Shown here: one piece after another, positions 24,180 to 62,064 of the stretch
Numbering within the stretch: the first letter of the stretch is position 1
Layout of the letters: every line of letters starts with the position of its first letter
DNA from: Acidimicrobiia bacterium
GTDB lineage: Bacteria > Actinomycetota > Acidimicrobiia > Spongiisociales > Spongiisociaceae
DNA length: 64,000 bases
Assembly: GCA_011523635.1 (NCBI GenBank)
Contig: WTGI01000013.1
Coordinates: forward strand, 17,177 to 81,176
Reading direction: 5' to 3'
Program-made: the position numbers and the translations under genes
The notes under the pieces: model-generated
Told to the model about the DNA's origin: nothing
The model's input: the letters and a program-made list of their open reading frames with translations, nothing else
Database searches by the model: none

Positions 24180-25309
24180 ATGCTTTACCTGGACCATGCC
24201 GCCTCCTCCCCCCTGCGACCCGAGGTGTGGGCCGCGATGGAACCTTTCCGTCTCGACGTCTACGGCAATCCGTCAGGGAGCCACGCCATCTCCCGGAGCG
24301 CCAAGAACGCCCTCGAGGATTCCCGCGACCTGGCAGCCTCGCTCATCAACGCCGACCCGAGCGAGATCGTGTTCACAGGGGGTGGATCGGAGGCCGACAA
24401 CCTGGCCATCAAGGGCAGGGCCTTCTCGGGTGGGCGCCGGGGCGCCATCATCACGTCGCCCACGGAACACGACGCCGTCCTCATGAGCACCGAGTACTGC
24501 CACTCCTTCGGATCCGCGGTCACCTACGCGAAGGTGACCACCGATGGCCTCGTCGACCCGGCCGAGGTCGCCTCCCATGTGACCGCGGATACGGCGGTGG
24601 TCTCGATCATGATGGGCAACAATGAAACCGGCGTGAGGATGCCCGTCGAGGAGGTGGCGGCAGCGGTAAAGGCTGCCCACCCCGCGGCCATCGTCCACAC
24701 CGATGCGGTCCAGGGTTACGTCTCGGAACGGGTGGATGTCGACGCTCTGGGTGTCGACCTACTATCTCTCGCGGCGCACAAGTTCGGAGGTCCCAAGGGC
24801 GTGGGCTTTCTCTACGTCCGGTCCGGGACTCCTCTTGCTCCCCTGGTCCATGGTGGCGGGCAGGAACTCGGTCGGCGTTCCGGTACCCACAACGTGATGG
24901 CCGTGGTCGGAATGGCGGCCGCTATGGCCGCTCTCGGGGACGACCGGGCCGCCTTCCGGTCCCGGGTCATGGGCGAACGCGACGCTTTCGAAGCTACCTT
25001 GGCCCGGCTGATCCCGGACCTGGTCGTCACCGGCGCCGGCGCGGCCCGGATGGTCCAGACCAGCCACGTCCGCATTCCCGGTGTTCGCAACGAGATGCTG
25101 CTGGTCCGGCTCGACCGGGCCGGGCTGGCCGCGTCCGCGGCCTCCGCCTGCCAATCGGGCGCGGCGACGGTCTCCCACGTGCTCGAGGCCATGGGTATGA
25201 GTCCAGCTCTGGCCAGGGAGTGCCTCCGGTTCTCGTTCGGCTGGTCGACCGCAGAGGGCGAGGGCGCCCGCGCGGCCAGGCTGGTGGCCGGCGAAGCAGG
25301 CGCCCTGCG

Positions 25310-25313
<4 letters not shown>
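24180..25313 (+). CDS. Cysteine desulfurase (class V aminotransferase, NifS/IscS-like)
   Basis: 377 aa; PLP-lysine region SLAAHKFGGPKGVGFLY. Confidence 0.85.
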
Positions 25314-40418: not shown

Positions 40419-41678
40419 CTAATCATCTAGTGCCCGATCAAGGGCGTTGATCAACCGGTCGATCTCGCCTTCGGTGTTGTAGTGGATGAAGGACATCCTC
40501 AGCACGCCGGGCTCCGCAGGTATCCGCATCTCATCGAGGAGGCGCGGGGCGTAGAAGTCCCCGACGCCGACCATCATCCGGCTACGGACCAGTGACTCCG
40601 CGACTTCCGCGACCGGGCGTCGCACCGGGACGATCGAGACGGTGGGGGCCCGCCGGGTGGCGTCGGTCGGGCCGGCCACCCGTACGTCGGCCCGCCCTTC
40701 CAGGTACCGCAGCAGCCGGTCCGCCAGGTTCGTCTCGTGGGCCCGGAACATGTCATGGACCGCCCGGCCTCGCTCCACCGGGGTCGCAGAGGGTCCTCCA
40801 TGGTGGGTATACAGGTCGTCCAGGTAGTCGATCACCCCTGCGCACGCCGCCACCTGGGCATGGTCTGGTCCGGCCGGCACCAGCTTGAAGCGGGGCTGGT
40901 CGGCCACGAAGTAGTGGCCCTCGTTCCCGAGCTGACCCGCCAGGTCGCGGCGGACGTACATCACCCCCTGGTGCGGACCCCACGTCTTGTAGGCGGAGAA
41001 GAGGTAGACATCGACCCCCAGTGCCCCTATGTCGGGTAGGCCGTGGGGTGCGTAGGACACCCCGTCGACCACCACCCGGGCGCCGACTTCCGCCGCCCTC
41101 GCCACCACATCGGTGACCGGGTTGATGGCGGCCACCACGTTCGAGGCGTGCGGGAAGGCGACCAGCCTGGTGCGCTCGGTCATCAACCTGTCGAGATCGG
41201 CTAGGTCCAGGGTTCCCTTCTCCGGATCCACCCGCCACTCCCGTACCACGATCCCCGTGGCCTCCAACCGCCTCCAAACACCGGCGTTGGCCTCGTGGTC
41301 CTGCGTGGACGCGACGATCTCGTCCCCGTCCCGCCACATCGACCGGAACGCCCGGGCCAGGACGTAGGTGTTCTGCGAGGTGGACGGCCCGAAATGGATC
41401 TCATCCACCCCCACGCCCGTCCACGCCGCCATTCGTCGGTAGGAGTGCTCCATCGCCTCGGTGGCCTCGATCGAGAGCGGGAAGGCATGATCGGGTTGTA
41501 CCTTGGTGCGCCGGTAGAAGCCGGTCAGGCGGTCGATCACCTGCCGGCAGGCGTAGGATCCGCCCGCGTTCTCGAAGTGGGCCCACCCGGCGAGACGGGC
41601 GTCGGAGAAGGCGGGAAACTGGCGGCGGGCGAACTGTACGTCCAAGGGCCGCAGCGAGATTTCCGGCTCGGGGTTCAC
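40419..41678 (-). CDS. Aminotransferase class V-fold PLP-dependent enzyme (cysteine desulfurase-like)
   Basis: 419 aa; SAYKTWGPHQG PLP-lysine-like motif. Confidence 0.65.
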   Translation of the reverse strand: MNPEPEISLRPLDVQFARRQFPAFSDARLAGWAHFENAGGSYACRQVIDRLTGFYRRTKVQPDHAFPLSIEATEAMEHSYRRMAAWTGVGVDEIHFGPSTSQNTYVLARAFRSMWRDGDEIVASTQDHEANAGVWRRLEATGIVVREWRVDPEKGTLDLADLDRLMTERTRLVAFPHASNVVAAINPVTDVVARAAEVGARVVVDGVSYAPHGLPDIGALGVDVYLFSAYKTWGPHQGVMYVRRDLAGQLGNEGHYFVADQPRFKLVPAGPDHAQVAACAGVIDYLDDLYTHHGGPSATPVERGRAVHDMFRAHETNLADRLLRYLEGRADVRVAGPTDATRRAPTVSIVPVRRPVAEVAESLVRSRMMVGVGDFYAPRLLDEMRIPAEPGVLRMSFIHYNTEGEIDRLINALDRALDD

Positions 41679-42432: not shown

Positions 42433-43482
42433 ATGTCTACCCGGCGTAGGGTGGTGCTCGAGAATGCCCCGCTGCCTTCTCCCTTTCCCGAGGGCTGGTA
42501 CTTCGTCACGAGCCGTAGGGCACTGCTGGAAGCCGGGATCATCGAAAAGACATGGATGGGAGAGAACATCGTCGCCTGGAGCGACGAGAACGGCACCGTG
42601 TGCGTCGCCGGCGCCTACTGCCCGCATCTGGGCGCCGATCTGGGACCGACCGCAGGAGGTCGCATCTGTGAGGGGCGGCTGGTCTGCCCGTTCCATGGCT
42701 ACGAGTTCGACGCCACCGGGCAGTGCGTGGCCACCCCCTATTCCCCGCCGCCCACGACCGCGAGGTTACGCGTGTTCGAGACGCAGGAGATCGCGGGCCT
42801 GATCTTCGCCTGGTGGGGGATCGGGGGACGGGTGCCGCAATGGAGTCTGCCGGAGGATGAACCGGATCAGGCCGGCTGGACCGGTCTCAAGATCAGAACT
42901 CTCCGATTTCCCGGCCATCCCCAAGAGACGACGGAGAACTCGGTCGACGTGGGCCACCTGCGCTACGTCCACGGCTATGACAGCGTGGACCGCGTTGGGC
43001 GGGTGTCCGTGGACGGGCCGCGTCTGGAGAGCGACTTCGACTTCAGGCGCACCCGGAAGATTGCCGGACCACTGACCTCCACCTTCGAAGTCTCTGCCCG
43101 CACGCGAATCTTCGGGTTGGGTTACTCGTTCGTGGAGATCCGCGAACGCTCGATCGGGATGGATCTGCGCCTGTGGGTGCTGGCCACGCCGGTCGACGGT
43201 TCGCTCATCGACCTGTCGCTGGTTTCGCAGGTGCGGGAGATACGCAAGCCGGGGCGGTGGATCGCGGGCCTGGGGTTCCTGCCGGTGAAGTGGCGAGCCC
43301 CCATCATGAACCGGTTCATCGCGTCCCAGCAGTACCGGGATGTCCAGCAGGATGAGATCATCTGGAGCCGCAAGCAGTACCGATCCCGCCCGCTCCTGTG
43401 CCGTTCCGACGGCGAGATCATGCCGTTCCGGCGCTACTGCGCCCAGTTCTATCCCGACCCGGCCGATCTGGAGACTCCCTAG
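42433..43482 (+). CDS. Rieske [2Fe-2S] non-heme iron oxygenase (KshA/PAO/Neverland-like single-component alpha subunit)
   Basis: Rieske CPHLGADL...CPFHGYEF motif, and a mononuclear Fe motif E-x3-D-x2-H-x4-H (ENSVDVGHLRYVHG). Confidence 0.8.
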   Translation: MSTRRRVVLENAPLPSPFPEGWYFVTSRRALLEAGIIEKTWMGENIVAWSDENGTVCVAGAYCPHLGADLGPTAGGRICEGRLVCPFHGYEFDATGQCVATPYSPPPTTARLRVFETQEIAGLIFAWWGIGGRVPQWSLPEDEPDQAGWTGLKIRTLRFPGHPQETTENSVDVGHLRYVHGYDSVDRVGRVSVDGPRLESDFDFRRTRKIAGPLTSTFEVSARTRIFGLGYSFVEIRERSIGMDLRLWVLATPVDGSLIDLSLVSQVREIRKPGRWIAGLGFLPVKWRAPIMNRFIASQQYRDVQQDEIIWSRKQYRSRPLLCRSDGEIMPFRRYCAQFYPDPADLETP

Positions 43483-43505: not shown

Positions 43506-45533
43506 TTACACCGGCAGTTCGTGCCTCTGCTCGGCGACGACGAACTTCAGCTTGTTGTTCACCGACGACGACGGGAAGGAGCTGATCTTCAGCTTGTAGT
43601 TGGCGGGAGAGATCTCGAGCCTGAAATGGTGAACGAGCAGCAGCAGATGGATCGCCAGGTGCAGGGATGTCCACCGGGACCCCAAACACGTATGGGTACC
43701 CAGACCGTACGGCGCGTAAGACGACCCGAGGTGCTCCTTGCGCGGAGGCAGGTAGCGATCGATGTCGAACGAGAAGGGATCGGGGAAGACGTCCTCCATG
43801 TAGTGCGTGGCCGTTTGGGCAATCAGAACCCGCGCTCCCTCCGGCAGCTCGTATCCCTCGACGGCGCACGTATTCATCACGTTTCGATATGAGGCCGGCA
43901 CGATCGGGTAGAGACGCAGGCACTCCATGATGAACCGGCGTGTGATGTCGATCCCTGGCCCGGTGAGTTCGTCACGATCCGGCGTCCCCTTGGCGAACAG
44001 GGCGTCTGCCTCATTGCTAATACTCTCGTGGAACTCGGGCTGCGACAACATCGCGTAGATGATTAGGCCGAGTTGATCACCGACATACATGCTTGCGATC
44101 AGCGCCGCCGAGAGCACGAAGGGCAGGTTCGACTCCGGGAGGAACTGCCGATCGCTCGCGTGCATGCTCAGCAGGTCATCGGCGAGGTCGCGAGGGCACC
44201 CAGCCCGCTGGGCGGGTGTGTGGCTACTCAGGACTCGTTCCATGACCTCTCCGACCAGCTTCGCCCGGCGCTTCATTGCGGGCGTACGCAGCATCAACTT
44301 GGGCAGGTTCCCGATTACATGGGTCTGCAGGGCTCTTTCCTTGAATTTGTGCAGGTCCGCGACGACATCCTGAGTATCGATGCTGACCATGGCGGGCGAC
44401 AACGTTGAATTGACCAACTGCCTGCACATCGTCTTTGCAGGGAGCTTGTCACCGATAGACCAAGCCGCCATGTAGGCCCGGGCGGTGGAGTAGCACTCAT
44501 CCAGCCGAGTCTCCAACCTGGTGCGGGAATAGGCCGGTTGCATGGACTTGCGGTACCGGAAATGATCCGCACCGTCCAGGGTGGGCAGGATTCCTGATCC
44601 TCCGTATACCTTTTCGAAATCCTCCAGATAATCTCTGGATCTCAGGTACATCCGCCCATGCCGATGTGCCCAGTGATTCATCTCGGGGCCGGCGAGCAAA
44701 ATCATCGGGCCGGTCAAGGGCGGGCGGAGCTCGAACACCGGTCCATATTCTTTGGCAAGCTCTGCAAAGAAAGCCGGTAAATTACCTTGGCGAGCGGGCC
44801 GGCTGCGCAGCAACCTACGAAGCGGGACAACCGGAATCGGCTTAGCGAAAGCGGAAGACCTGAACAACGACACAGACAGGTTATGGCCAACTGCTGCGGC
44901 GATGGACCTGCCTATCAGGTCCATCTTGGAGATGAACTCGACACGCTTCTCCGACTCTTCATCGAGTTCGAATATGAATCGTAGGACATCACATGTATTG
45001 ATAAGACAGATTATGATGATATCTCTGGGGTCCGGAATCTCGTTAGCAAAGATTGCTCTGCTGAGACGTGTCTTTACGAAGTCAACGGCAGTACCTTCTC
45101 CAGATGTGGCGTAAGGACCCTTCTGCCATGCGCCCCGGGCCAGCGACCAGAAATCGCCGTCATGGTGCCGGAGTATCTCCAGGTCGACCAGCCGGTCAAG
45201 GGTCAAGTCGATAATCGATTCCGCGCGCGGGGCGAGACGTTCGATCCAGTACTGGGCGTCTCGTTGAACCGGTTCGGCCGCGATTTGCTCGAGGATAGGA
45301 TCTAGGGCAGGATCGCCCGTTTCCGTTCGGTCCAGGAGGATCAACGAATCCATATCCGTATCGATACGGGATAGGAGCGACAGCTCTCCCAGCACGCCTC
45401 CGATAACGGCACAGTTCAAATCCCACCCAGGAACCTGCCGGAAGTAGCCACTCTCCTCGTTGAGGAGTGTGAGGACGAGTTCGTCGACCAAACTGAGCTT
45501 CTGAGTGACCGCACTGTCGGCGGTTAGAGTCAT
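43506..45533 (-). CDS. Cytochrome P450 with N-terminal GPP34/GOLPH3-like domain (fusion protein)
   Basis: N-terminal ~220 aa match the GPP34 pattern (LSLVDELVLTLLNEESG...AVIGGVLGELSLLSRI). The C-terminus carries P450 EXXR (ECLR), PERF-like DPFSFDIDRY and a heme loop YGLGTHTCLG. This part of the gene appears visibly AT-richer by eye (not computed). Confidence 0.75.
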   Translation of the reverse strand: MTLTADSAVTQKLSLVDELVLTLLNEESGYFRQVPGWDLNCAVIGGVLGELSLLSRIDTDMDSLILLDRTETGDPALDPILEQIAAEPVQRDAQYWIERLAPRAESIIDLTLDRLVDLEILRHHDGDFWSLARGAWQKGPYATSGEGTAVDFVKTRLSRAIFANEIPDPRDIIIICLINTCDVLRFIFELDEESEKRVEFISKMDLIGRSIAAAVGHNLSVSLFRSSAFAKPIPVVPLRRLLRSRPARQGNLPAFFAELAKEYGPVFELRPPLTGPMILLAGPEMNHWAHRHGRMYLRSRDYLEDFEKVYGGSGILPTLDGADHFRYRKSMQPAYSRTRLETRLDECYSTARAYMAAWSIGDKLPAKTMCRQLVNSTLSPAMVSIDTQDVVADLHKFKERALQTHVIGNLPKLMLRTPAMKRRAKLVGEVMERVLSSHTPAQRAGCPRDLADDLLSMHASDRQFLPESNLPFVLSAALIASMYVGDQLGLIIYAMLSQPEFHESISNEADALFAKGTPDRDELTGPGIDITRRFIMECLRLYPIVPASYRNVMNTCAVEGYELPEGARVLIAQTATHYMEDVFPDPFSFDIDRYLPPRKEHLGSSYAPYGLGTHTCLGSRWTSLHLAIHLLLLVHHFRLEISPANYKLKISSFPSSSVNNKLKFVVAEQRHELPV

Positions 45534-45666
45534 CCGTCCGGTCCCTCCGTCACCAACCTTCGAATCTTAGCATGAACCACGCATGAAGAAAGTATGAAGA
45601 AGCTGTTCGGGAGCATGAAGCGTAGAGAGGTGGTATCCACTGAGGGGGTCCGGTAGGCTGGGCGCC

Positions 45667-46437
45667 ATGGCTCAACTACAACTGCGTCCACTGGGTGTCG
45701 GCGAAATCGTCGACGCCACCTTCACCGTCTACCGCCGCCGCTTCGGCCCGATGTTCGCCATCGCGCTGATGCTCGTGTTCATCCCTTTCCTCGTCAGCCT
45801 GGTCGGGGGCTGCAGCCTTGACTCGGGCGGCATCACTACGTGCACGTCTCCCATCGGTTGGCTCGGGTATTACGTAAGCGTTGTCGGTTCGTTCGTGGCG
45901 AGCGTGGCTGCCGTCCTCGTGGCTGCCGGAGCGTATGCAGATGTCCCGTCCGACTGGCGGAGCGCGATGAACACCGGAATCCGGAGGATCGTCCCGATCA
46001 TCGCGGCGACGATCGTGGCCGGGGTTTTGATCGCCATCGGATTCCTGCTCGTGATCATCCCCGGGATCTTCCTTGCCGTGTCGCTGGCGGTGGTCTGGGA
46101 GGCTCTGATCATTGAAGATGTCGGTCCGATGGAGAGCATCAAGCGGTCGTGGCGCCTGGTGGCGGGCGAGCGCTGGCGGGTGTTCGGCGCCGGCTTCCTC
46201 GTCATAGTCCTGTCGGCCATCTTCTTCGGGATCGTCTCGGCCGTGGTCTGGCTCATCCTCTCGACCGGCCTCGGCGTGAGCGGTGGGATTGCCGGCTACC
46301 TCGTCCAGCAGGTCGCCACCCTGCTGTCGGTCCCGCTGACGGCCGCGCTCGGCACGGTCATCTATCTCGACCTGCGGGTCCGCAAGGAGTCGCTGAGCGC
46401 AGCCGAACTCGCCGCCGCTCTGTCCGAACAAGGCTGA
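45667..46437 (+). CDS. Hypothetical polytopic membrane protein
   Basis: 256 aa, about six TM helices. Confidence 0.55.
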   Translation: MAQLQLRPLGVGEIVDATFTVYRRRFGPMFAIALMLVFIPFLVSLVGGCSLDSGGITTCTSPIGWLGYYVSVVGSFVASVAAVLVAAGAYADVPSDWRSAMNTGIRRIVPIIAATIVAGVLIAIGFLLVIIPGIFLAVSLAVVWEALIIEDVGPMESIKRSWRLVAGERWRVFGAGFLVIVLSAIFFGIVSAVVWLILSTGLGVSGGIAGYLVQQVATLLSVPLTAALGTVIYLDLRVRKESLSAAELAAALSEQG

Positions 46438-46526: not shown

Positions 46527-46600
46527 GGCCCCGTCGTCCAGCCGGCCTAGGACGCTGGCCTTTCAAGCCAGAAACGCGGGTTCGAATCCCGTCGGGGCCA
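46527..46600 (+). tRNA. tRNA-Glu (anticodon UUC)
   Basis: Manual cloverleaf: acceptor GGCCCCG/CGGGGCC, anticodon stem CTGGC/GCCAG, loop CTTTCAA, T-loop TTCGAAT, discriminator A. No encoded CCA. Confidence 0.85.
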
Positions 46601-46735
46601 CTGTTTCTCTTCGGGGGCTGCGGCGTGTCGTCGCGGCTGCGACCGAGCGGAACGCGTTGCCCGAGCTACGGCCGCGCTCACGAATCGGGCTGCTACCGTC
46701 TCCTGCGCCCCACCCGGCCCTTTCCTGAGGTGTAG

Positions 46736-47932
46736 ATGACCGGGGACAGACACTTCTACGTCGAGACGTTCGGCTCGGTCCGGTTGAGTTCGTTCCGGCT
46801 CGGCCGATCGCCCTTTGCCGACCGGTACGTGACGGATCAGACCGTCTTCGGCCTGTACTGCGGTCGCCTGTATCCCATCAAGGCGTACCCTGACGAGGAC
46901 CCCGTTCCCCAGTACTGGAAGTTGCGGAACGGGGTGATGCTGTACGACGTCCCCGAAAAGCCCCTCGAGATCATCGGCCCGGAAGCCGCCAGGATGCTCG
47001 AGAGGGTCCTCACCTGCAGGGTCGGCACGCTCGCAGTGGGTCGGGCTCGGTACGGAATCGCCTGCAATGAGGACGGCACCGTTCTGATGGACGGTGTGAT
47101 CATGCGCCTCGCGCCGGATCGCTTCTGGTATGTGAAGGCGAACGGTGAATTCGAGGGTTGGCTCACGGCGCACGCCATGGGGCTCGATGCCGAAGTCTCC
47201 GATCCGGATTCGAGAGTCCTCCAGATTCAGGGACCGAGTTCGCTCGACGTGCTGGACGCGGCGATCGGCGGTGGACTATCGACCGACTTCAGGTACTTCC
47301 ACGCCGGATTCTTCGAAATCGACGGACAGACACTGTGGGTGTCCCGGACCGGATGGACGGGCGAGGCGGGGATCGAGATCTACTGCAACAGCGGTCCGGA
47401 GGCGACGGATCATGACGCCCTCTGGGATTACCTGCTCGCGTGCGGTGAGCCCTTCGGCATGGAGTTCAGCTCGTCTTCATCGATGGGCATACGGCGCATC
47501 GAGGCCGGCATCCTGGACAACGGCACGGATATCGAGCCGGACCTGACCCCGTACGGCGCCGGCCTCGGGAATTTTGTTGCACTCGACAAGGGGGACTTCA
47601 TCGGACGCTCCGCGCTGGCGAGGGCCGATCGCAGCCAACTCCTGTTCGGCCTGGTTTGTGCTACCGCAGCACCGGACGCCGGGATGCAGGTGCACCTCGA
47701 GAACGGCCCGGTCGGGCATATCACGATCGGCACCTGGTCGCCCTCGCTGGAGGCAGGAGTCGGCTACGTGCGCTTCGACCGGCCTCTGCCGGGCGGCGAC
47801 TGGCTCGGCAAGACGGTCTCGTTGATCGACCATAAGGGAGCTCCTCACCCGGCGACCGTTGACACCCTGCCGTTCGTGGATAAGGAGAAGCGGTTGCCCC
47901 GCGCCGAATGGAGTGGCGGACGGTCCGGTTGA
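46736..47932 (+). CDS. Aminomethyltransferase (GcvT) family folate-binding protein
   Basis: 398 aa with a GcvT fold (…VSRTGWTGEAGIEIY…). A GAGGTG SD precedes ATG 46736. Confidence 0.7.
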   Translation: MTGDRHFYVETFGSVRLSSFRLGRSPFADRYVTDQTVFGLYCGRLYPIKAYPDEDPVPQYWKLRNGVMLYDVPEKPLEIIGPEAARMLERVLTCRVGTLAVGRARYGIACNEDGTVLMDGVIMRLAPDRFWYVKANGEFEGWLTAHAMGLDAEVSDPDSRVLQIQGPSSLDVLDAAIGGGLSTDFRYFHAGFFEIDGQTLWVSRTGWTGEAGIEIYCNSGPEATDHDALWDYLLACGEPFGMEFSSSSSMGIRRIEAGILDNGTDIEPDLTPYGAGLGNFVALDKGDFIGRSALARADRSQLLFGLVCATAAPDAGMQVHLENGPVGHITIGTWSPSLEAGVGYVRFDRPLPGGDWLGKTVSLIDHKGAPHPATVDTLPFVDKEKRLPRAEWSGGRSG

Positions 47933-47959
47933 CACCGGCCTGCCGATACCTGGTATCTT

Positions 47960-48031
47960 GCGGGCCTGATCGGGAGTGGTGTAATCGGCAGCACGACAGG
48001 TTCTGGCCCTGTTAGTAGGGGTTCGAGTCCT
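47960..48031 (+). tRNA. tRNA-Gln (anticodon CUG)
   Basis: Manual cloverleaf: acceptor TCGGGAG/CTCCCGA, D-stem GTGT/GCAC, anticodon stem ACAGG/CCTGT, loop TTCTGGC, T-loop TTCGAGT. Confidence 0.85.
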
Positions 48032-48068
48032 CTCTCCCGAGCGGTTGGTATCATTCGCCACACGCAGT

Positions 48069-48141
48069 GGCCCCGTCGTCTAGGGGCCTAGGACACCGCC
48101 CTCTCAAGGCGGAGACGCCAGTTCAAATCTGGTCGGGGCTG
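48069..48141 (+). tRNA. tRNA-Glu (anticodon CUC)
   Basis: Manual cloverleaf parallel to E. coli tRNA-Glu: acceptor GGCCCCG/CGGGGCT (G1-U72), anticodon stem CCGCC/GGCGG, loop CTCTCAA, T-loop TTCAAAT. Confidence 0.85.
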
Positions 48142-48209
48142 CGATAGAACGACCCGGTCGGGCTCATCACCGTTGGTGAGGGGCTCCGGTCGGGTCTTTC
48201 CTTGTCCGG

Positions 48210-52949: not shown

Positions 52950-53825
52950 GTGTATCCATCCGCGTTCGACTACTCGGCGCCCGGCAGTCTTGAGGAGGCC
53001 CTGGCTACCCTGGCTGAATTGGGTGACGAGGGCCGGATTCTCGCCGGAGGCCAGAGCCTCATCCCCATGATGAAGCTCCGGCTGGCGGCGCCGGGCCACC
53101 TCGTGGACATCAACCGCGTCAGCGAGCTGGCACACATAAGCGAGTCCAACGGCCACCTGGCGGTGGGGGCGCTGGCCCGTCACGCCGACGTGGCCTCATC
53201 GGAGACGGTGAGCCGCTACAACCACACGGTGGCCTCCGCGGCGCCTTGGGTGTCCGATCCGCTGGTGCGGAACCGGGGAACCCTGTGCGGCTCGGTGGCC
53301 CACTGCGACCCCGAGGGCGACTGGAACTCGGTCATGCTGGCGGTGGGCGCCTCGGTGGTGGCCCGCTCGTCGTCGGGGGAGCGGGTGATCCCGATCACCG
53401 AATTCGTGGTCGACTTCTTCACCAACTCCCTCAATCCCGGCGAGATGGTCACGGAAGTGCGGATCCCGGCGTACCGGGGTCCGGCCGGGGGCGCGTACCT
53501 CAAGCTGGAGCGCAAGGTCGGCGACTACGCCACTGTGGGGGTGGCCACCCATCTCGTGCTCGACGGTTCGGGGAACGTGGCGGAGGCGGGCCTGGGCCTG
53601 ACCGCCGTTTACGGCCACAACCTGAAGGTCACGGAGGCGGAGGAGATGATGGCCGGGCAGACCCCCGGACCGGAAATGTTCGCCGAGGCGGCGGCCATCG
53701 CGGCCCGCGCCTGCGATCCCGATGACAACGTTCGGGGTCCGGCCGAGTACAAGCGGGCCGTGGTAGCCGAGTACACCAGGCGCGGGTTCGCCCAGGCGCT
53801 GGCCCAGGCAGGAGGGGAGGGCTGA
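52950..53825 (+). CDS. coxM: Carbon monoxide dehydrogenase medium (FAD-binding) subunit
   Basis: FAD_binding_5/CO_deh_flav_C domains (ILAGGQSLIPMMKLRL). Confidence 0.85.
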   Translation: MYPSAFDYSAPGSLEEALATLAELGDEGRILAGGQSLIPMMKLRLAAPGHLVDINRVSELAHISESNGHLAVGALARHADVASSETVSRYNHTVASAAPWVSDPLVRNRGTLCGSVAHCDPEGDWNSVMLAVGASVVARSSSGERVIPITEFVVDFFTNSLNPGEMVTEVRIPAYRGPAGGAYLKLERKVGDYATVGVATHLVLDGSGNVAEAGLGLTAVYGHNLKVTEAEEMMAGQTPGPEMFAEAAAIAARACDPDDNVRGPAEYKRAVVAEYTRRGFAQALAQAGGEG

Positions 53826-54286
53826 TGCAGATCACCGTCAACGTAAACGGCGCCAGCGAGACCCGGGATGTAGAACCCCGGCGCCTGCTGGTCGACTTCA
53901 TCCGCTCGGACGCGGGCCTTACCGGGACCCACATCGGCTGCGACACCTCCTCCTGCGGTGCTTGCACCGTCCTCCTGGACGGCCGGCCGGTCAAGTCTTG
54001 CACGGTGCTGGCGGTCCAGGCCGACGGCGGCGAGGTGAAGACCGTAGAGGGCCTGGCCGAGGGTGGCGAGCTCCATCCGGTCCAGGCCGCTTTCAAGGAG
54101 CACCACGGCCTGCAGTGCGGCTTCTGCACACCGGGAATGATGCTGGTGGGCAGCGCTTTGCTGGAAGAGAATCCGAATCCGACCGACGAGGAGGTCCGCT
54201 GGGCCATATCCGGCAACATCTGCCGCTGCACCGGCTACATGAACATCGTGACTGCCATCCAGGCCGCAGGCGGAGAGGGGAGCTGA
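53825..54286 (+). CDS. coxS: Carbon monoxide dehydrogenase small [2Fe-2S] subunit
   Basis: Two 2Fe-2S motifs (CDTSSCGACTV, CGFCTPGMM...CRCTGY). Confidence 0.9.
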   Translation: MQITVNVNGASETRDVEPRRLLVDFIRSDAGLTGTHIGCDTSSCGACTVLLDGRPVKSCTVLAVQADGGEVKTVEGLAEGGELHPVQAAFKEHHGLQCGFCTPGMMLVGSALLEENPNPTDEEVRWAISGNICRCTGYMNIVTAIQAAGGEGS

Positions 54287-54287
54287 C

Positions 54288-56660
<2,373 letters not shown>

Positions 56661-56707
56661 GAGGGTCAACCCGGTCCCGTCTTCTTTAGCACCGTCCTAA
56701 GGATGCG

Positions 56708-57595
56708 ATGAGCATCCTCCGGCAGGCAGCCCGGCTGCACGAGGAGGGACGGGCGTTCGCGCTGGCCACCGTCACGTGGTCGCGCGGGCCGTCGTCGGGC
56801 AAGGGCGGTTCCAAGGCGATAATCCACCCGGACGGCCGGGTGGAGGGTTGGCTGGGAGGCGCCTGCGCCTCCCCGACAGTGGTTCGCCACGCCCTGGAGG
56901 CGCTGGGGGATGGCGAGGCGCGGGTGCTGATGCTGGGCGAGGGCGACCGTAGGCCCGGCGTGACGGACGTGGCTATGGCCTGTGACAGCGAAGGAGCGAT
57001 GGAGGTGTTCGTGGAACCGGTCCTCCCCTCTCCTCACCTGATCGTTGTCGGATCGTCCCCGATGACCGGGACCCTGCGGCGGATAGCCGAAGTGGTCGGG
57101 TGGCGGGCGGAGGTCGTCACCGAGGTGGGGGATGTCGGCCGGGCCGGCGAGCGGTCCTACGTAGTCGTCGCTACCCAGGGCCACTTCGACGAGCCCGCCC
57201 TGGAAGCCGCTCTCGCTACGCCTGCCTCCTACGTGGGCCTGGTGGCCTCCCAGAAGAGGGCCTCGTCGGTACTCGCCTGGCTCAGGGAGCGGGGAGCGGG
57301 AGAAGGTGCCCTGGCCAGAGTGCATGCTCCGGCCGGCGTCGATCTGGGGTCGACCACCCACGAGGAGATGGCCGTGTCGATCATGGCCGAGCTGGTCGCC
57401 TTCAAGGCAGCCGGGGCCGGCGCGCAAGGGGTCTGGGTGGTGATACCGGCCCAGGCGGTCGATCCGGTGTGCGGGATGCTGGTGGACGTGGCGACGGCCG
57501 GCTTCGTCAGCCACCACGCCGGAGAAGAGGTCTACTTCTGCGCCGCCGGCTGCCGCCGCGCCTACGAGGCCGATCCCTCCGCATACACCGGTTAG
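56708..57595 (+). CDS. XdhC/CoxF-family maturation protein fused to a C-terminal YHS (TRASH-like) metal-binding domain
   Basis: XdhC_CoxI N-terminal region, an XdhC Rossmann-like domain, and a C-terminal DPVCGMLVD...HHAGEEVYFCAAGCRRAYEADP YHS motif. Confidence 0.75.
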   Translation: MSILRQAARLHEEGRAFALATVTWSRGPSSGKGGSKAIIHPDGRVEGWLGGACASPTVVRHALEALGDGEARVLMLGEGDRRPGVTDVAMACDSEGAMEVFVEPVLPSPHLIVVGSSPMTGTLRRIAEVVGWRAEVVTEVGDVGRAGERSYVVVATQGHFDEPALEAALATPASYVGLVASQKRASSVLAWLRERGAGEGALARVHAPAGVDLGSTTHEEMAVSIMAELVAFKAAGAGAQGVWVVIPAQAVDPVCGMLVDVATAGFVSHHAGEEVYFCAAGCRRAYEADPSAYTG

Positions 57596-57683: not shown

Positions 57684-58220
57684 GTGAAGATGCGCCAGGT
57701 CATCGTTGGCGGTCTAGGACTGCTCGTTCTGGTGGGGATGGCGGCATGCCAGGGAGAGACGTCCTCCGCGGTGGGACAGGAGGCTGTTGCTTCGATGTCG
57801 GGCACCGACGGTGGCGCACTAGGCACCGTCGTCCTCACGGAAGGACCAAACGGTGTCCTGATCTCGGCTGACGTGGCGGGGCTTTCCCCCGGAGCGCACG
57901 GATTCCACATCCATGAGGTGGGGGCTTGCACGCCCGATTTCTCAGCGGCGGGCGGGCACTTTGCTCCCGGCGGGGAAGGTCATGGCTTCCAGCACGAGGA
58001 CGGGTCCCACGCCGGAGACCTGCCGAACCTCTACGCGGGTGCGGACGGAGTTGCGCGGGCCGACGTCTTCACGAACAAGATCACGCTGGCGGCCGATGCT
58101 GACACGTCGATCTTCGATGCGGACGGCTCCGCCATCATCATCCACGCCAGACCCGACAGCTACGGCCCCGACCCCGGCGCGGGCGACCGCGTCGCCTGCG
58201 GCATCATCAAGCGCACATAG
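57684..58220 (+). CDS. sodC: Cu/Zn superoxide dismutase, lipoprotein
   Basis: Lipobox LVGMAAC; GFHIHEVGAC and GGHFAPGG motifs; metal-ligand histidines. Confidence 0.88.
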   Translation: MKMRQVIVGGLGLLVLVGMAACQGETSSAVGQEAVASMSGTDGGALGTVVLTEGPNGVLISADVAGLSPGAHGFHIHEVGACTPDFSAAGGHFAPGGEGHGFQHEDGSHAGDLPNLYAGADGVARADVFTNKITLAADADTSIFDADGSAIIIHARPDSYGPDPGAGDRVACGIIKRT

Positions 58221-58849: not shown

Positions 58850-59698
58850 CTAGTTACAGGCGGGGAGACCTTCGGTCGGACCGATGTGCCGCTCGTAGAC
58901 CTCGTCGAGCGTGCCTCTCGAGATGTAGTAGGCCAGCCAGCCGTTCAGGTATTCGAGCCACACGACCTCACCGCGGGGAAGAGCCCATGCTCCGTACTCC
59001 TCCGCGACGAACGGCGCGTTGGGATTCAGCACGCTGGTGCTCGGGTTCTCCGCGACGAACGGGAGGGCGAGGTACTCCTCGATGACGATCGCGTCGGCCC
59101 TGCCCGAGGCAACTTCGAGCAACGCGGGCGCCTGATCGAGCTCCACGAGTTCCGCGTTCGGGAACCGGGTCTCGGTGAGGCTGGCCGCGGTGGAGCCGAT
59201 CAGGGCGGTCATGGTCACGCCACTGCTGTTCAATTCGCTGATGTCGTTGATTCCCGAGTCGTTGTTCACCACGACCACCTGGCGGTAGGGAACGTATGGA
59301 CATGTGAACCAGAGCTGCTCGAGACGAGCCGGACGACCGACGAGACCTACCGACACCATGTCGAACTGGTTGGCGATCAGGCCCGGGATCATCGCGTCGA
59401 ACTCGAGGTTGGAAATCTCGAGCGTCACGCCGAGATCCTCGGCGAGCATGTTCATCAGGTCCACGTCGTATCCGGCGGGGTTCCCTGCGTCATCGATGTA
59501 CATCTGCGGCGGGAACTGGAGGACCATACCGACGTGGAGGGTCCCACGGTCCTTGATCTGGTCGAGGAGGTTGCCTTCCACCGCGGCCTGCGCCGCAGCC
59601 GTCGGTCCGCCATCGCCGCCCTCGTCCTCGCTCGCGCAGGCGCCCGCGAGCATTACTAGCGCGAGTACCGGGACTAGCCACTTCATGCGGCTCTTCAT
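58850..59698 (-). CDS. Polar amino-acid ABC transporter substrate-binding lipoprotein (family 3 SBP)
   Basis: Start at MKSRMKWLVPVLALVMLAGAC (lipobox), then an SBP_bac_3 fold. Confidence 0.8.
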   Translation of the reverse strand: MKSRMKWLVPVLALVMLAGACASEDEGGDGGPTAAAQAAVEGNLLDQIKDRGTLHVGMVLQFPPQMYIDDAGNPAGYDVDLMNMLAEDLGVTLEISNLEFDAMIPGLIANQFDMVSVGLVGRPARLEQLWFTCPYVPYRQVVVVNNDSGINDISELNSSGVTMTALIGSTAASLTETRFPNAELVELDQAPALLEVASGRADAIVIEEYLALPFVAENPSTSVLNPNAPFVAEEYGAWALPRGEVVWLEYLNGWLAYYISRGTLDEVYERHIGPTEGLPACN

Positions 59699-59823
59699 AC
59701 TGTGTCTCCTTCCAGGGATTTCGACGTGCTTCCATGCGAGTGACCGGCCAACCGTGAGACAGGCCAAGATCATCCATCATCTGTGAGTTGTGATGTCCGA
59801 GCTGTGACGTCGAACGAGCCATC

Positions 59824-60639
59824 CTACATTGCCGTAGCCGTCCCGGACGATTTGGATTCACGTTCGGATGCGACAGCCTCCTGGATCATCCTCAGACGTA
59901 TCCCCCTGCGTCGGGCGAAGGGCGACCTCACTCTGGTGGTGAGGACGTCGACCAGGGCAAACCGCTTCTCGAGGTACTTCACGCCGAAATACGCCGCGGT
60001 GGTGAGGATGAGGTAGAAGATGACCGCGCCGAGATACACCTCGAAGTAGCGGAATGTCCTGTTGGCCATCACGCTGCTCACCCGGAAAAGCTCGGGTACA
60101 CCGATTATGAAGACCAGGGACGAGTCCTTGATCATGCCGATGAACATGTTGCCCGTGGGAGGGATGACGATGCGGATGGCCTGCGGCAGCACCACCCGGA
60201 AGAAGGTCTGGGGACGACTCATACCCACCGACAGGGCCGCCTGGGTCTGCCCGTCGGAGACCGCCTGGATGCCGCCGCGGAAGATCTCGCCGAGCCAGGC
60301 GGAGTACTGAAGGGTGAGAACGAGTATCCCGGCCTGGATGGCGGAGATCCTGATATCAAACTGGATCGCTATCCCGTAGTACACGAAGACGACGAACACC
60401 AGCAGAGGGATAGCCCGGAAGATGTTGATGTAGGCGGCCATGATCGGGGCGACAATCCGATTCTTCGACATGCGCAGGAGAGCAACCCCCAGGCCGAATA
60501 CCGTCGCCAGCGCGAAGGCCACGATGGCGATGAACACGGTCAGCCTTACTCCGCCGAGGAAGACGTCCCGGTTCTCCCAGATGAACTCAGGCCTGAAACG
60601 GGCCTGGGCGAGCACCGGGATCACCAGGAAGGAATTCAT
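59824..60639 (-). CDS. Polar amino-acid ABC transporter permease
   Basis: HisM/GlnP-type permease with an EAA-like region ([20 protein letters not shown]). Confidence 0.8.
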
Positions 60640-61403
60640 AGGATTGCCTGCAGGAACGCCCGGGTGCGGGGCTCCCGGGCGTGGTCGTACAACTCCCGCC
60701 CCCCGGTCTCCACCACCAGGCCCTCGTCCATGAATATGTTCAGGTCGCCGGCTTCCCTGGCGAACCCCATCTCGTGGGTGACCACCACCATCGTCATACC
60801 CGACTCAGCCAAGTCACGCATGACGGTCAGTACCTCGCCGACCAATTCCGGATCGAGCGCCGAGGTGGGTTCGTCGAACAGCATCACCTTGGGTTCCATG
60901 ACCAGGGAGCGGGCGATCGCCACCCGCTGTTGCTGGCCGCCCGACAGCTGCGACGGGAAAGCGCCCAGCTTGTCGAGCAGGCCCACCCGGTCGAGGTAGG
61001 TGGCGGCCTTGTGCTCGGCCTTGTCACGCTTCATCCCCCGCACCCGCCGGAGGGCCAGAGCCACGTTGTCGAGGGCGGTGACGTGGGGGAACAGGTTGAA
61101 CTGCTGGAACACCATGCCGATCTGCTGGCGGAGGAGCCGTGCCTTGCCACGGGGTAGGCCCTCTCCTTCGATGCCGGGGCCGTATTCCTTGCCGTCGAAC
61201 CAGACCGAACCGGAGTCCGGGGTCTCGAGGAGGTTGGTGGTTCTGAGCAGGGTTGACTTGCCGGATCCGGAGGGCCCGAAGATGACCACGTGCTGGCCCT
61301 GCCCCACCGTCAGGTCGATGCCCCGCAGGACATGGTTGGTATCGAACGACTTGTGGATGTTGCGTAGCCGGACGACCGGCTGGGCGTCCCCGGTCTGGCT
61401 CAT
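60636..61403 (-). CDS. Polar amino-acid ABC transporter ATP-binding protein
   Basis: Walker [13 protein letters not shown], signature [13 protein letters not shown], Walker [13 protein letters not shown]. Confidence 0.88.
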
Positions 61404-61408
61404 CTCCG

Positions 61409-61666
61409 CTACGTGTCCATCGGGGTCCCGCGCACCTCAGCTTGGTGCCCGTGGCGGTTCAGCAGGTTCACGAGCGCGTCCTCGGCGAACCTGAGTCCGT
61501 CATGCATGCCGAGCCGGTAGGCGCTCCGGCCCTTGGCGTCGTTGTAGTCCAGTTCTTGCCGGACCCGCTCGATGAGATGGAGGATCCCCTGTTCCGGGCT
61601 CTCACCGGGTTCGGAGACACGGGCCCTCTGGTCGGCTTGCAGCGAGTTACCGGGAGGATGTGACAT
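61409..61666 (-). CDS. Hypothetical small protein co-transcribed with the ABC transporter
   Basis: 85 aa; 4-nt gap to the ATPase gene. No domain recognised. Confidence 0.4.
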
Positions 61667-61688: not shown

Positions 61689-61967
61689 TCAGGACACGCC
61701 GGCGGTGGCGGCGCGATACGCCTTGGTAACGGCGTCCAGTCCTTCGGGGTCGAAGCCCGTGACCGTCCGGTCCTCGAAGATCAGGTAGGGCACGACGAGG
61801 TCTCCGGTCAGAGCGAGCAACTCCCGGCGAGCCTCCTCGCTCTGGCGGATGTTGCGGTCGTCGAACTCGACGGAGTTGGCCTCCAGGTAGTCCCGCACCC
61901 GGCAGCACTCCTGTCAGGTCGGGGTTCGTGCGTCGGTATTGAGGGTGTAGAGGACGGGGTGCTCCAT
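61689..61967 (-). CDS. Glutaredoxin-like protein (YruB/NrdH-like) with in-frame TGA at the active site; candidate selenoprotein (UxxC), alternatively a pseudogene
   Basis: Minus-strand read: ATG(61967)-MEHPVLYTLNTDARTPT-TGA(61916..61914)-QECCR-VRDYLEANSVEFDDRNI...GFDPEGLDAVTKAY. It aligns to Grx-like TPTCPYCK...VEF...VGFD, with TGA in place of the first Cys of CPYC. The track splits it into 61914..62495 and 61689..61898. Confidence 0.55.
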
Positions 61968-62064
61968 AGGGGTCACTATAGAACGGCAGCCTCGCCGCCG
62001 CGCGGCCGAGGGGCATCGGGTCGGCCTGTAGGATGCCCACCGTGCATTTCGTGGAGGAGCGGGT

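Follow-up and report, generated by a model that had tools for sequence, protein, structure and literature searches.

We identified a short gene in an Acidimicrobiia genome of the family Spongiisociaceae that very probably encodes a genuine selenoprotein, a 92-residue NrdH/YruB-like oxidoreductase of the glutaredoxin fold in which a UGA at codon 18 specifies selenocysteine (Sec) and the active site reads U-Q-E-C-C. The gene lies on the minus strand of a 64,000-nucleotide stretch of contig WTGI01000013.1; this whole stretch, whose G+C content is ~68%, is referred to here as the window. An initial annotation of the window had put the gene forward as a candidate selenoprotein of the UxxC type, and the proposal was borne out by tests at the sequence level: the UGA is kept in related genomes, the protein is under purifying selection, a SECIS-like hairpin is present and TGA is an ordinary stop codon elsewhere in the window.

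An in-frame UGA in the active site of a glutaredoxin-like gene

The gene, the proposed Sec codon and a promoter-like hexamer were placed as follows:

61689..61967, minus strand: glutaredoxin-like candidate selenoprotein gene, full length (translation, Pfam match, frame kept in 58 loci)
61914..61916, minus strand: in-frame UGA, proposed Sec codon (at the first Cys of CxxC; TGA in 58 of 58 related loci)
61975..61980, minus strand: TATAGT, a -10-like hexamer (7 nt upstream of the ATG; read directly in the sequence)

Translation of the minus strand from 61967 to 61689 gives MEHPVLYTLNTDARTPT, a stop, QECCRVRDYLEANSVEFDDRNIRQSEEARRELLALTGDLVVPYLIFEDRTVTGFDPEGLDAVTKAYRAATAGVS and a second stop. This is a single frame with one internal stop, and it reproduces exactly the peptide reported in the initial annotation. 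The ATG occupies 61967-61965, the internal TGA 61916-61914 and the terminal TGA 61691-61689; read through, the gene has 92 codons, including that for Sec18, followed by the TGA stop, with the putative active site U18-Q-E-C21-C22. The immediate context of the internal TGA is MEHPVLYTLNTDARTPT-TGA-QECCRVRDYLEANSVEFDD. The ORF lister breaks the gene in two, as had been noted before, into a 193-aa upstream ORF that ends in MEHPVLYTLNTDARTPT and a 69-aa ORF that starts from a GTG (61689..61898). The further expectation that automated annotation would truncate the gene to a fragment lacking the CxxC motif is matched by the public gene calls, which show exactly such fragments.

The TATAGT hexamer is part of a GTTCTATAGTGA element common to close relatives; the element also occurs in locus L001 and can be seen as ...CSIVN... 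in the upstream translations of loci L011-L018. The position of this conserved GTTCTATAGTGA element, which ends 7 nt 5' of the ATG, supports the ATG at 61967 as the likely true start, and the arrangement suggests that the transcript is leaderless or has a very short leader. A scan for consensus sigma-70 promoters and terminators gave no match.

For profile searches, U was written as C. Under this convention residues 5-67 match the Pfam Glutaredoxin profile (PF00462) with 41.9 bits, where the gathering threshold is 22.9. Among the curated NCBIfam models YruB (TIGR02196) scores best, at 51.3 bits against a cut-off of 88.55; the scores for Uxx-star (NF041212, 30.6 bits against 66; the proposed Sec is at residue 18 of 92) and NrdH redoxin (TIGR02194, 26.2 bits against 85.75) are also well below the cut-offs. 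The closest solved structure is PDB 7c10 (E 2e-9). Judged from these matches, the protein has a glutaredoxin fold and is not a member of the YruB or NrdH family. The initial annotation had described a residue-for-residue alignment with YruB-type proteins; this holds from residue 15 onward and fails before it, where ordinary YT(S/T)PTC proteins lack the LNTDAR stretch inserted here, and the 51.3 bits fall short of 88.55. The TGA does fall on the first Cys of the redox motif, as claimed, with the placeholder Cys aligned to the first Cys of CPHC (PDB 7c10).

A Cys aligned to the Sec position was found in distant homologues only, namely glutaredoxin-like proteins with CPHC, CPYC or CPWC motifs and PDB 7c10. 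The nearest of the CxxC proteins show 35-46% identity within the part that aligns, with E values of about 1e-5 to 1e-3. No Cys-form orthologue was found within the family, so the Cys/Sec pairs for which the initial annotation had proposed to look exist with distant CxxC relatives and are confined to them.

Conservation of the UGA and of the protein around it

When one genome per GTDB species was scanned, the same arrangement was found in 43 further species, nearly all of them Acidimicrobiia. The carriers include Ca. Spongiisocius and Spongiisociaceae sponge symbionts as well as Danish soil MAGs, and complete genomes are among them (for example OZ241858.1, OY760694.1 and ERZ25069580 ctg105713_214x_c); the chromosomes OZ246890.1, OY282370.1 and OZ241390.1 have the gene as well. 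In the 58 related loci, which represent 43 GTDB species, mostly Acidimicrobiia and including sponge symbionts (Ca. Spongiisocius), the codon at the Sec site is TGA in every case (58/58); TGC or TGT was found in none, and neither was TAA or TAG. For the organism of the window itself, at least four assemblies made independently show the TGA: the window's own copy of p85, the 85-aa protein encoded next downstream, occurs on 12 contigs, and the four places that were fetched come from four different samples, each with the TGA and a 69-aa truncated call upstream of p85.

These data bear directly on the possibility that a glutaredoxin gene was inactivated by a TGC-to-TGA change, as a pseudogene or through a sequencing or assembly error. 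A single base change from TGC or TGT does give TGA. But the same TGA recurs in 43 species whose proteins are as little as ~55% identical, and assemblies made independently from short and from long reads both contain it. The gene is free of frameshifts and additional stops, strong purifying selection acts on either side of the TGA, and the other genes of the operon are intact. The conserved TGA across species and assemblies effectively refutes this reading. Both sequencing error and recent decay, which the initial annotation had listed as ways in which its proposal might fail, are excluded by the same data, since the TGA is kept in all orthologues and none shows signs of decay.

Protein databases record the gene only in part. 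Among 5.8 billion proteins searched, 39 homologues were found, 38 of which are 65-71 aa long and start just past the TGA; the exception, P0039 (153 aa), likewise begins past the TGA and continues into the downstream protein as a fusion. All homologues at E < 1e-9 are cut at the same point except the singleton P0161, and none has Cys at the site. Ten of the encoding contigs were read upstream, and all carry the same in-frame TGA, preceded by ...LY(S/T)LNT(D/E)ARTPT. P0161, a read-assembled singleton from soil (SRR3954466), is the family's only full-length database protein and reads TPT-G-QECC; it is not on record in assemblies. Its Gly could reflect a genuine GGA codon, an error in the reads or a gene call made under a code in which UGA means Gly.

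The amino acids on both sides of the TGA are held constant while their codons vary. Residues -9 to -1 (LNT[D/E]ARTPT) are invariant except for the one D/E position and are encoded by 2-5 synonymous codons each; the Arg at -4, for example, is encoded across the loci by CGC, CGT, CGA, CGG and AGG. Residues +1 to +7 (QECCRVR) are likewise invariant with synonymously varied codons. Over a 21-codon stretch (-12 to +8), 46 distinct nucleotide sequences translate to 10 peptides. Invariant flanks despite synonymous codons indicate that translation continues through the TGA. Furthermore, the +1 to +5 codons (QECCR) sit between the TGA and the annotated GTG start, and their invariance upstream of that start indicates that they are translated. 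The gene has both an orthologue-conserved UGA and coding conservation on either side of it, the combination taken as the mark of a selenoprotein gene; on the coding side, the selenoprotein proposal is upheld by this protein-level purifying selection before and after the TGA.

The same codons decide against a reading in which the locus makes two products, a conserved 17-residue leader peptide that ends at the UGA and an independent 69-residue fragment that starts from the GTG five codons on. All public gene calls take such a form, and the fragment retains a partial match to the Glutaredoxin profile. Yet QECCR is invariant between the TGA and the GTG despite the use of GAG and GAA, TGC and TGT, and four Arg codons, which makes a leader with a separate fragment untenable and tells equally against pseudogene decay. 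The leader supplies beta-1 and the loop into the active site, whereas the 69-aa fragment is left without beta-1 and without CxxC. Finally, if the codon served only as a terminator, it could have drifted to TAA or TAG, yet it is TGA in 58 of 58 loci. We consider two separate products highly improbable and retain a single selenoprotein read through the UGA as the probable product.

A change of the genetic code was also considered and ruled out. TGA is the commonest stop in the window, where it ends 27 of the 42 ORFs supported by a strong third-position GC signal (GC3); TGA is therefore a normal stop here, in agreement with the initial annotation.

A SECIS-like hairpin in the coding sequence

A hairpin that could direct Sec insertion was found within the coding sequence:

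61872..61911, minus strand: SECIS-like hairpin (minimum free energy, synonymous resamples, pairing across the family)

With the T of the TGA numbered 1, the outer stem pairs G6-U13 with G36-C45 and the upper stem pairs C15-G21 with U28-G34. The outer stem is formed by GGAGUGCU with GGC..ACUCC and the inner one by CCGGGUG with UACCUGG; the upper stem begins 11 nt past the UGA, and the apical loop, CGGGAC, lies at +22 to +27 (61895..61890), with G23 and G24 at its top. The hairpin drawn in the initial annotation (outer GGAGU/ACUCC, inner CCGGGUG/UACCUGG, loop CGGGAC) coincides with the predicted minimum-free-energy structure of -24.2 kcal/mol, calculated for the 51 nt from the UGA (z -2.95 against dinucleotide shuffles). 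Because the coding sequence itself constrains the RNA, resampling of synonymous codons was added as a control. Compared with resamples drawn from the codon usage of the window, the window hairpin is more stable (z -2.5, p 0.01), and most of the 40 distinct family sequences likewise exceed their own resamples in stability (mean z -2.0). The soil clade (L007, L040, L049, L052 and L053) showed no excess stability in the same comparison.

Pairing across the family points in the same direction. In one common register, 73% of cells were paired, and when the partners were slid as a control the figure was 34-56%; the two positions of pair 21-34 covary (UA 12, GC 9, GU 5, CG 1). The register of the hairpin varies between clades, which makes the support from covariation moderate rather than strong. 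In bSECISearch, the apical loop of a bacterial SECIS is expected ~16-37 nt from the UGA, with a G early in the loop; the window hairpin agrees with this pattern, and that of the soil clade does not do so convincingly. Taken as a whole, the sequence evidence for a SECIS is good for the clade of the window and is not uniform across the family. A search of Rfam around the gene at a permissive E-value yielded chance matches only and none to a SECIS, as expected because bacterial SECIS elements are poorly covered.

The geometry can be compared with that of the E. coli fdhF-type SECIS. In the E. coli fdhF work, an upper stem starting 11 nt from the UGA together with G23/G24 at the top of the loop is the geometry that SelB needs, and this description reportedly goes back to Liu and colleagues in 1998 and Huttenhofer and colleagues in 1996. 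The window hairpin shares with the fdhF type its location inside the ORF, the upper stem 11 nt after the UGA and the loop G at about +23/+24; it differs in that its sequence is unrelated, there is no evident bulged U, the loop is CGGGAC and the stem register varies with the clade.

Two observations concern the sequence around the hairpin. The stretch SVEFDDRNIRQS (window 61779-61866, minus strand, codons 35-63) is near-invariant family-wide, far more so than in ordinary glutaredoxins, and it may be a surface that a partner or substrate contacts, or it may belong to the recoding signal. Directly after the SECIS-like stem, the VEFD codons (GUCGAGUUCGAC) form a second, small hairpin.

Sec machinery and the identity of the inserted residue

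Genes for the Sec machinery were sought near the gene and its relatives. selA, selB, selD and tRNA-Sec were not found in the window, within 10 kb past either end, or in 43 family loci of ~20 kb each. ARAGORN and Rfam returned no tRNA-Sec in the window or in 45 loci, and, as a control, ARAGORN did detect tRNA-Sec in unrelated SelA loci. Six-frame scans of the window and the family loci for the SelA PLP site, the SelD N-terminus and the SelB G1 motif gave no match, nor did Pfam assign SelA, SelB or SelD to any of 20 large window ORFs. Among 120 metagenome loci with a high-GC SelA motif, ranked by tetranucleotide similarity to the family, none shared flanking genes with it.

Related organisms do carry the machinery. 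In Actinomarina (Actinomarinales, same class), 84 of 84 complete genomes have selA, selB, selC and selD, with ~5 selenoproteins each (bioRxiv 10.64898/2026.04.03.716425). SelA, SelB and SelD COGs are recorded for the sponge-associated Acidimicrobiia bin76 (PMC5649159, Table S4), and the authors of that study describe SelA and SelB as enriched in sponge symbionts (PMC5649159).

These results bear on whether the UGA might be recoded without Sec. In that case a near-cognate tRNA or a suppressor tRNA would insert Trp, Cys or Gly, perhaps stimulated by the hairpin, and the full-length protein would be made but would not be a selenoprotein. Consistent with such recoding are the absence of Sec machinery from the window and the family loci searched, the Gly at the site in the singleton P0161 and the failure of the hairpin to match any curated SECIS model. 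Against it, the UGA lies exactly on the catalytic nucleophile of CxxC, the classic Sec position, where Trp or Gly would kill the active site; if Cys were wanted, some TGC or TGT would be expected, yet 0 of 58 loci have either; and related Acidimicrobiia possess the Sec machinery (bioRxiv 10.64898/2026.04.03.716425; PMC5649159). We regard recoding to another amino acid as very unlikely, and Sec as the probable residue at position 18.

The loci were also scanned for other selenoprotein genes, as in-frame TGA codons with a two-sided coding signal in the window and in L001-L055. None was found beyond a glutaredoxin-like gene of Acidobacteriota, and the remaining matches were ordinary gene junctions. 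That gene, a distant glutaredoxin-like one, occurs in two Acidobacteriota MAGs (L054 4108-4200 and L055 6921-7010), reads …GSA-TGA-RPCEKV and would give U-R-P-C. Other database families also start with 'M/V-R-E-F-L-S' just past the motif (P0163-P0165, P0168, P0175, P0176, P0180 and P0183). Unannotated UxxC glutaredoxin-like selenoproteins may be far more widespread than the Acidimicrobiia clade.

Several other features related to selenium metabolism or to the tRNA searches were recorded. Many metagenomic proteins of 890-1500 aa (P0190-P0254) combine SelA (PF03841), a SelB-type GTPase and a winged-helix domain in one polypeptide and are apparently natural SelA-SelB fusions. The window encodes two class-V aminotransferases of the cysteine desulfurase type, at 24180-25313 (plus strand) and 40419-41678 (minus strand), one NifS/IscS-like and one VC1184-like. 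Their matches to the selenocysteine lyase SclA model are weak, at 58 and 70 bits where the cut-off is 525. The two enzymes might mobilise selenium or sulfur, but they are not diagnostic. In locus L036 (170-261), ARAGORN calls a 92-nt 'tRNA-Pro (cgg)' with its anticodon at position 38, unusually long for a tRNA-Pro, which may contain an intron or be mis-called.

A small partner protein and an amino-acid transporter

The initial annotation described the gene as the head of an operon with a small protein and a polar amino-acid ABC transporter. This layout is confirmed, with successive gene gaps of 22, 5, -4 and 50 nt:

61409..61666, minus strand: p85, 85-aa partner protein (no Pfam or NCBIfam family; predicted helical hairpin)
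60636..61403, minus strand: ABC transporter ATPase, polar amino-acid type (Pfam ABC_tran; GlnQ and TcyN best, below cut-off)
59824..60639, minus strand: ABC permease, HEQRo 3-TM type (Pfam BPD_transp_1; score above the TIGR01726 cut-off)
58850..59773, minus strand: solute-binding protein, family 3 (Pfam SBP_bac_3)

The p85 ORF starts 22 nt after the glutaredoxin-like gene. The window copy contains no Cys and has the conserved motifs PPGNSL..DQ and LDYNDAKG...; it has no match in Pfam or NCBIfam, and its predicted structure is a helical hairpin (pLDDT 83.6) for which no specific structural relatives were found. Homologues of p85 fall into 111 clusters, mostly of 85-90 aa, and are listed as 'hypothetical protein' or left unnamed. 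In 41 of the 43 species loci p85 is directly downstream of, or fused to, the glutaredoxin-like gene, and it lies ~3 kb upstream in the other two. In ~15 species the two are fused in frame (as in P0039, P0153 and P0158). A reverse search that started from divergent p85 proteins again found the UGA gene preceding them, with a 4-nt overlap. Repeated fusion argues for a physical association of the two proteins.

The substrate of the transporter is less clearly indicated. The NCBIfam models for Lys/Arg/Orn and cystine binding proteins tie for the solute-binding protein, far below cut-off, and its start is uncertain (the public gene calls are 282 aa); the best NCBIfam match of the permease is cystine permease. 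Scores against the equivalogs of a cystine importer (TcyJLN / FliY-YecSC) are 76 against 312 bits for the binding protein, 157 against 300 for the permease and 287 against 406 for the ATPase. Cystine is one of several best-scoring substrates for the transporter, and because all scores are below the equivalog cut-offs, reduction of cystine or another disulfide after import is offered as a hypothesis only. About half of the species, like the window, have a polar amino-acid ABC transporter adjacent to the gene.

The operon has as neighbours a glyoxalase-like gene and a gene for a periplasmic Cu/Zn superoxide dismutase. Immediately downstream of it are a molybdenum hydroxylase cluster of the CO/xanthine dehydrogenase type at 52950-57595 (plus strand; FAD, 2Fe-2S and 790-aa Mo subunits, and XdhC) and the secreted Cu/Zn superoxide dismutase at 57684-58220 (plus strand), both assigned from same-length genes in L056. 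Positions 1-41700 and 46527-48142 of the window form a housekeeping region with genes for AspRS, MgsA, AlaRS, MltG/YceG, ArgRS, Mrp/ApbC, LigA, GatA, GatB and GltX and with a tRNA-Glu / tRNA-Gln / tRNA-Glu cluster. These housekeeping surroundings place the selenoprotein operon on the chromosome rather than on a mobile element. Elsewhere in the window, a 675-aa ORF (43506-45533, minus strand) combines an N-terminal GPP34 domain (Golgi phosphoprotein 3 family) with a cytochrome P450 domain, and it is adjoined by a Rieske/KshA-like oxygenase (42433-43482). The window's lowest-GC stretch (44001-46000; 58% against ~68%) holds the GPP34-P450 ORF, and the GPP34-P450/Rieske stretch may be a horizontally acquired island for steroid or terpenoid oxidation.

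Proposed function and implications

On the E. coli model, the hairpin in the coding sequence would serve as a bacterial SECIS and bring SelB, together with Sec-tRNA(Sec), to the ribosome. From its fold and motif, we expect that the Sec selenolate would attack its substrate, either a disulfide or some other oxidised compound of sulfur or selenium, and that Cys21 would resolve the resulting selenenylsulfide. The Sec protein would work with the 85-residue helical protein encoded downstream, which in all lineages examined is either translationally coupled or fused to it. More speculatively, in the sponge-symbiont clade the pair would be co-transcribed with the polar amino-acid ABC importer and might serve to reduce an imported disulfide such as cystine.

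A broader proposal, which we put forward tentatively and consider possible but rather doubtful, is that the UGA-glutaredoxin and p85 make up an undescribed selenium-dependent two-component module that is specific to Acidimicrobiia and uses Sec only, with p85 as a dedicated substrate, adaptor or sensor and a possible link to the uptake of disulfide amino acids in sponge symbionts. Any of these roles for p85 would account for the recurrent fusion of the two genes. If the proposal is true, p85 would be a new protein family with a selenoprotein-dependent function.

At present, dozens of Acidimicrobiia genomes, among them those of abundant sponge symbionts and of soil lineages, list the gene as a 'glutaredoxin family protein' of 65-71 aa from which the active site is missing. 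Correction of these entries would add a selenoprotein to a class in which the use of Sec has only just been reported. That Sec is never replaced by Cys in the sampled loci argues that selenium is functionally required. The pairing and fusion with p85 provide a concrete handle on an orphan family, and co-transcription with the polar amino-acid importer suggests that the redox chemistry of the selenoprotein is linked to nutrient uptake in symbionts. The conserved truncation points in protein databases could be used to find other missed selenoproteins. The finding should be of use for annotation, for selenoproteome surveys and as an entry to the orphan partner family; to a selenoprotein specialist it will be unsurprising.

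Comparison with known redoxins and selenoproteins

Glutaredoxins with a UxxC motif are experimentally verified prokaryotic selenoproteins (PMC13188914, Table 1; PMC9312934). The entries in Table 1 of PMC13188914 include Geobacter WP_010943784.1 and the Grx of Clostridium/Alkaliphilus oremlandii (Kim et al. 2011). With the bacterial UxxC glutaredoxins (PF00462) the window protein shares the fold, the probable replacement of the first CxxC Cys by Sec, a putative SECIS in the coding sequence just after the UGA and a length of ~80-90 aa. The clade of the window differs from them in its U-Q-E-C-C motif, in the six-residue insert LNT[D/E]AR before TPT-U, in that no Cys-form orthologues were found and in the obligate p85 partner, which is fused in some species. 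It also differs in its hosts: the known UxxC glutaredoxins are from anaerobic Firmicutes or Deltaproteobacteria, whereas the clade of the window consists of aerobic, high-GC Acidimicrobiia.

YruB (TIGR02196) and NrdH (TIGR02194) have in common with the window protein the order beta-alpha-beta-alpha-beta-beta-alpha, a TPTC-type approach to the active site and the (V/I)xGFD motif, but the window protein scores far below both cut-offs and probably has Sec in place of Cys. CVQC and WSGFRP, which we take to be NrdH signatures, are absent from it, and no class Ib ribonucleotide reductase genes were seen near the gene. The Uxx-star families (NF041212, NF041211 and NF047338) share a Sec-bearing glutaredoxin-like fold and weak profile similarity. 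In Uxx-star proteins, the Sec lies three residues from the C-terminus (U-x-x-stop), whereas the proposed Sec of the window protein is in the N-terminal redox motif.

None of the curated models and public annotations compared here recognises the clade. The UxxC glutaredoxin selenoprotein is a kind already known, and what is new here is a clade member that apparently uses Sec only; the two-gene module of the glutaredoxin-like protein and p85 is the part that could prove new.
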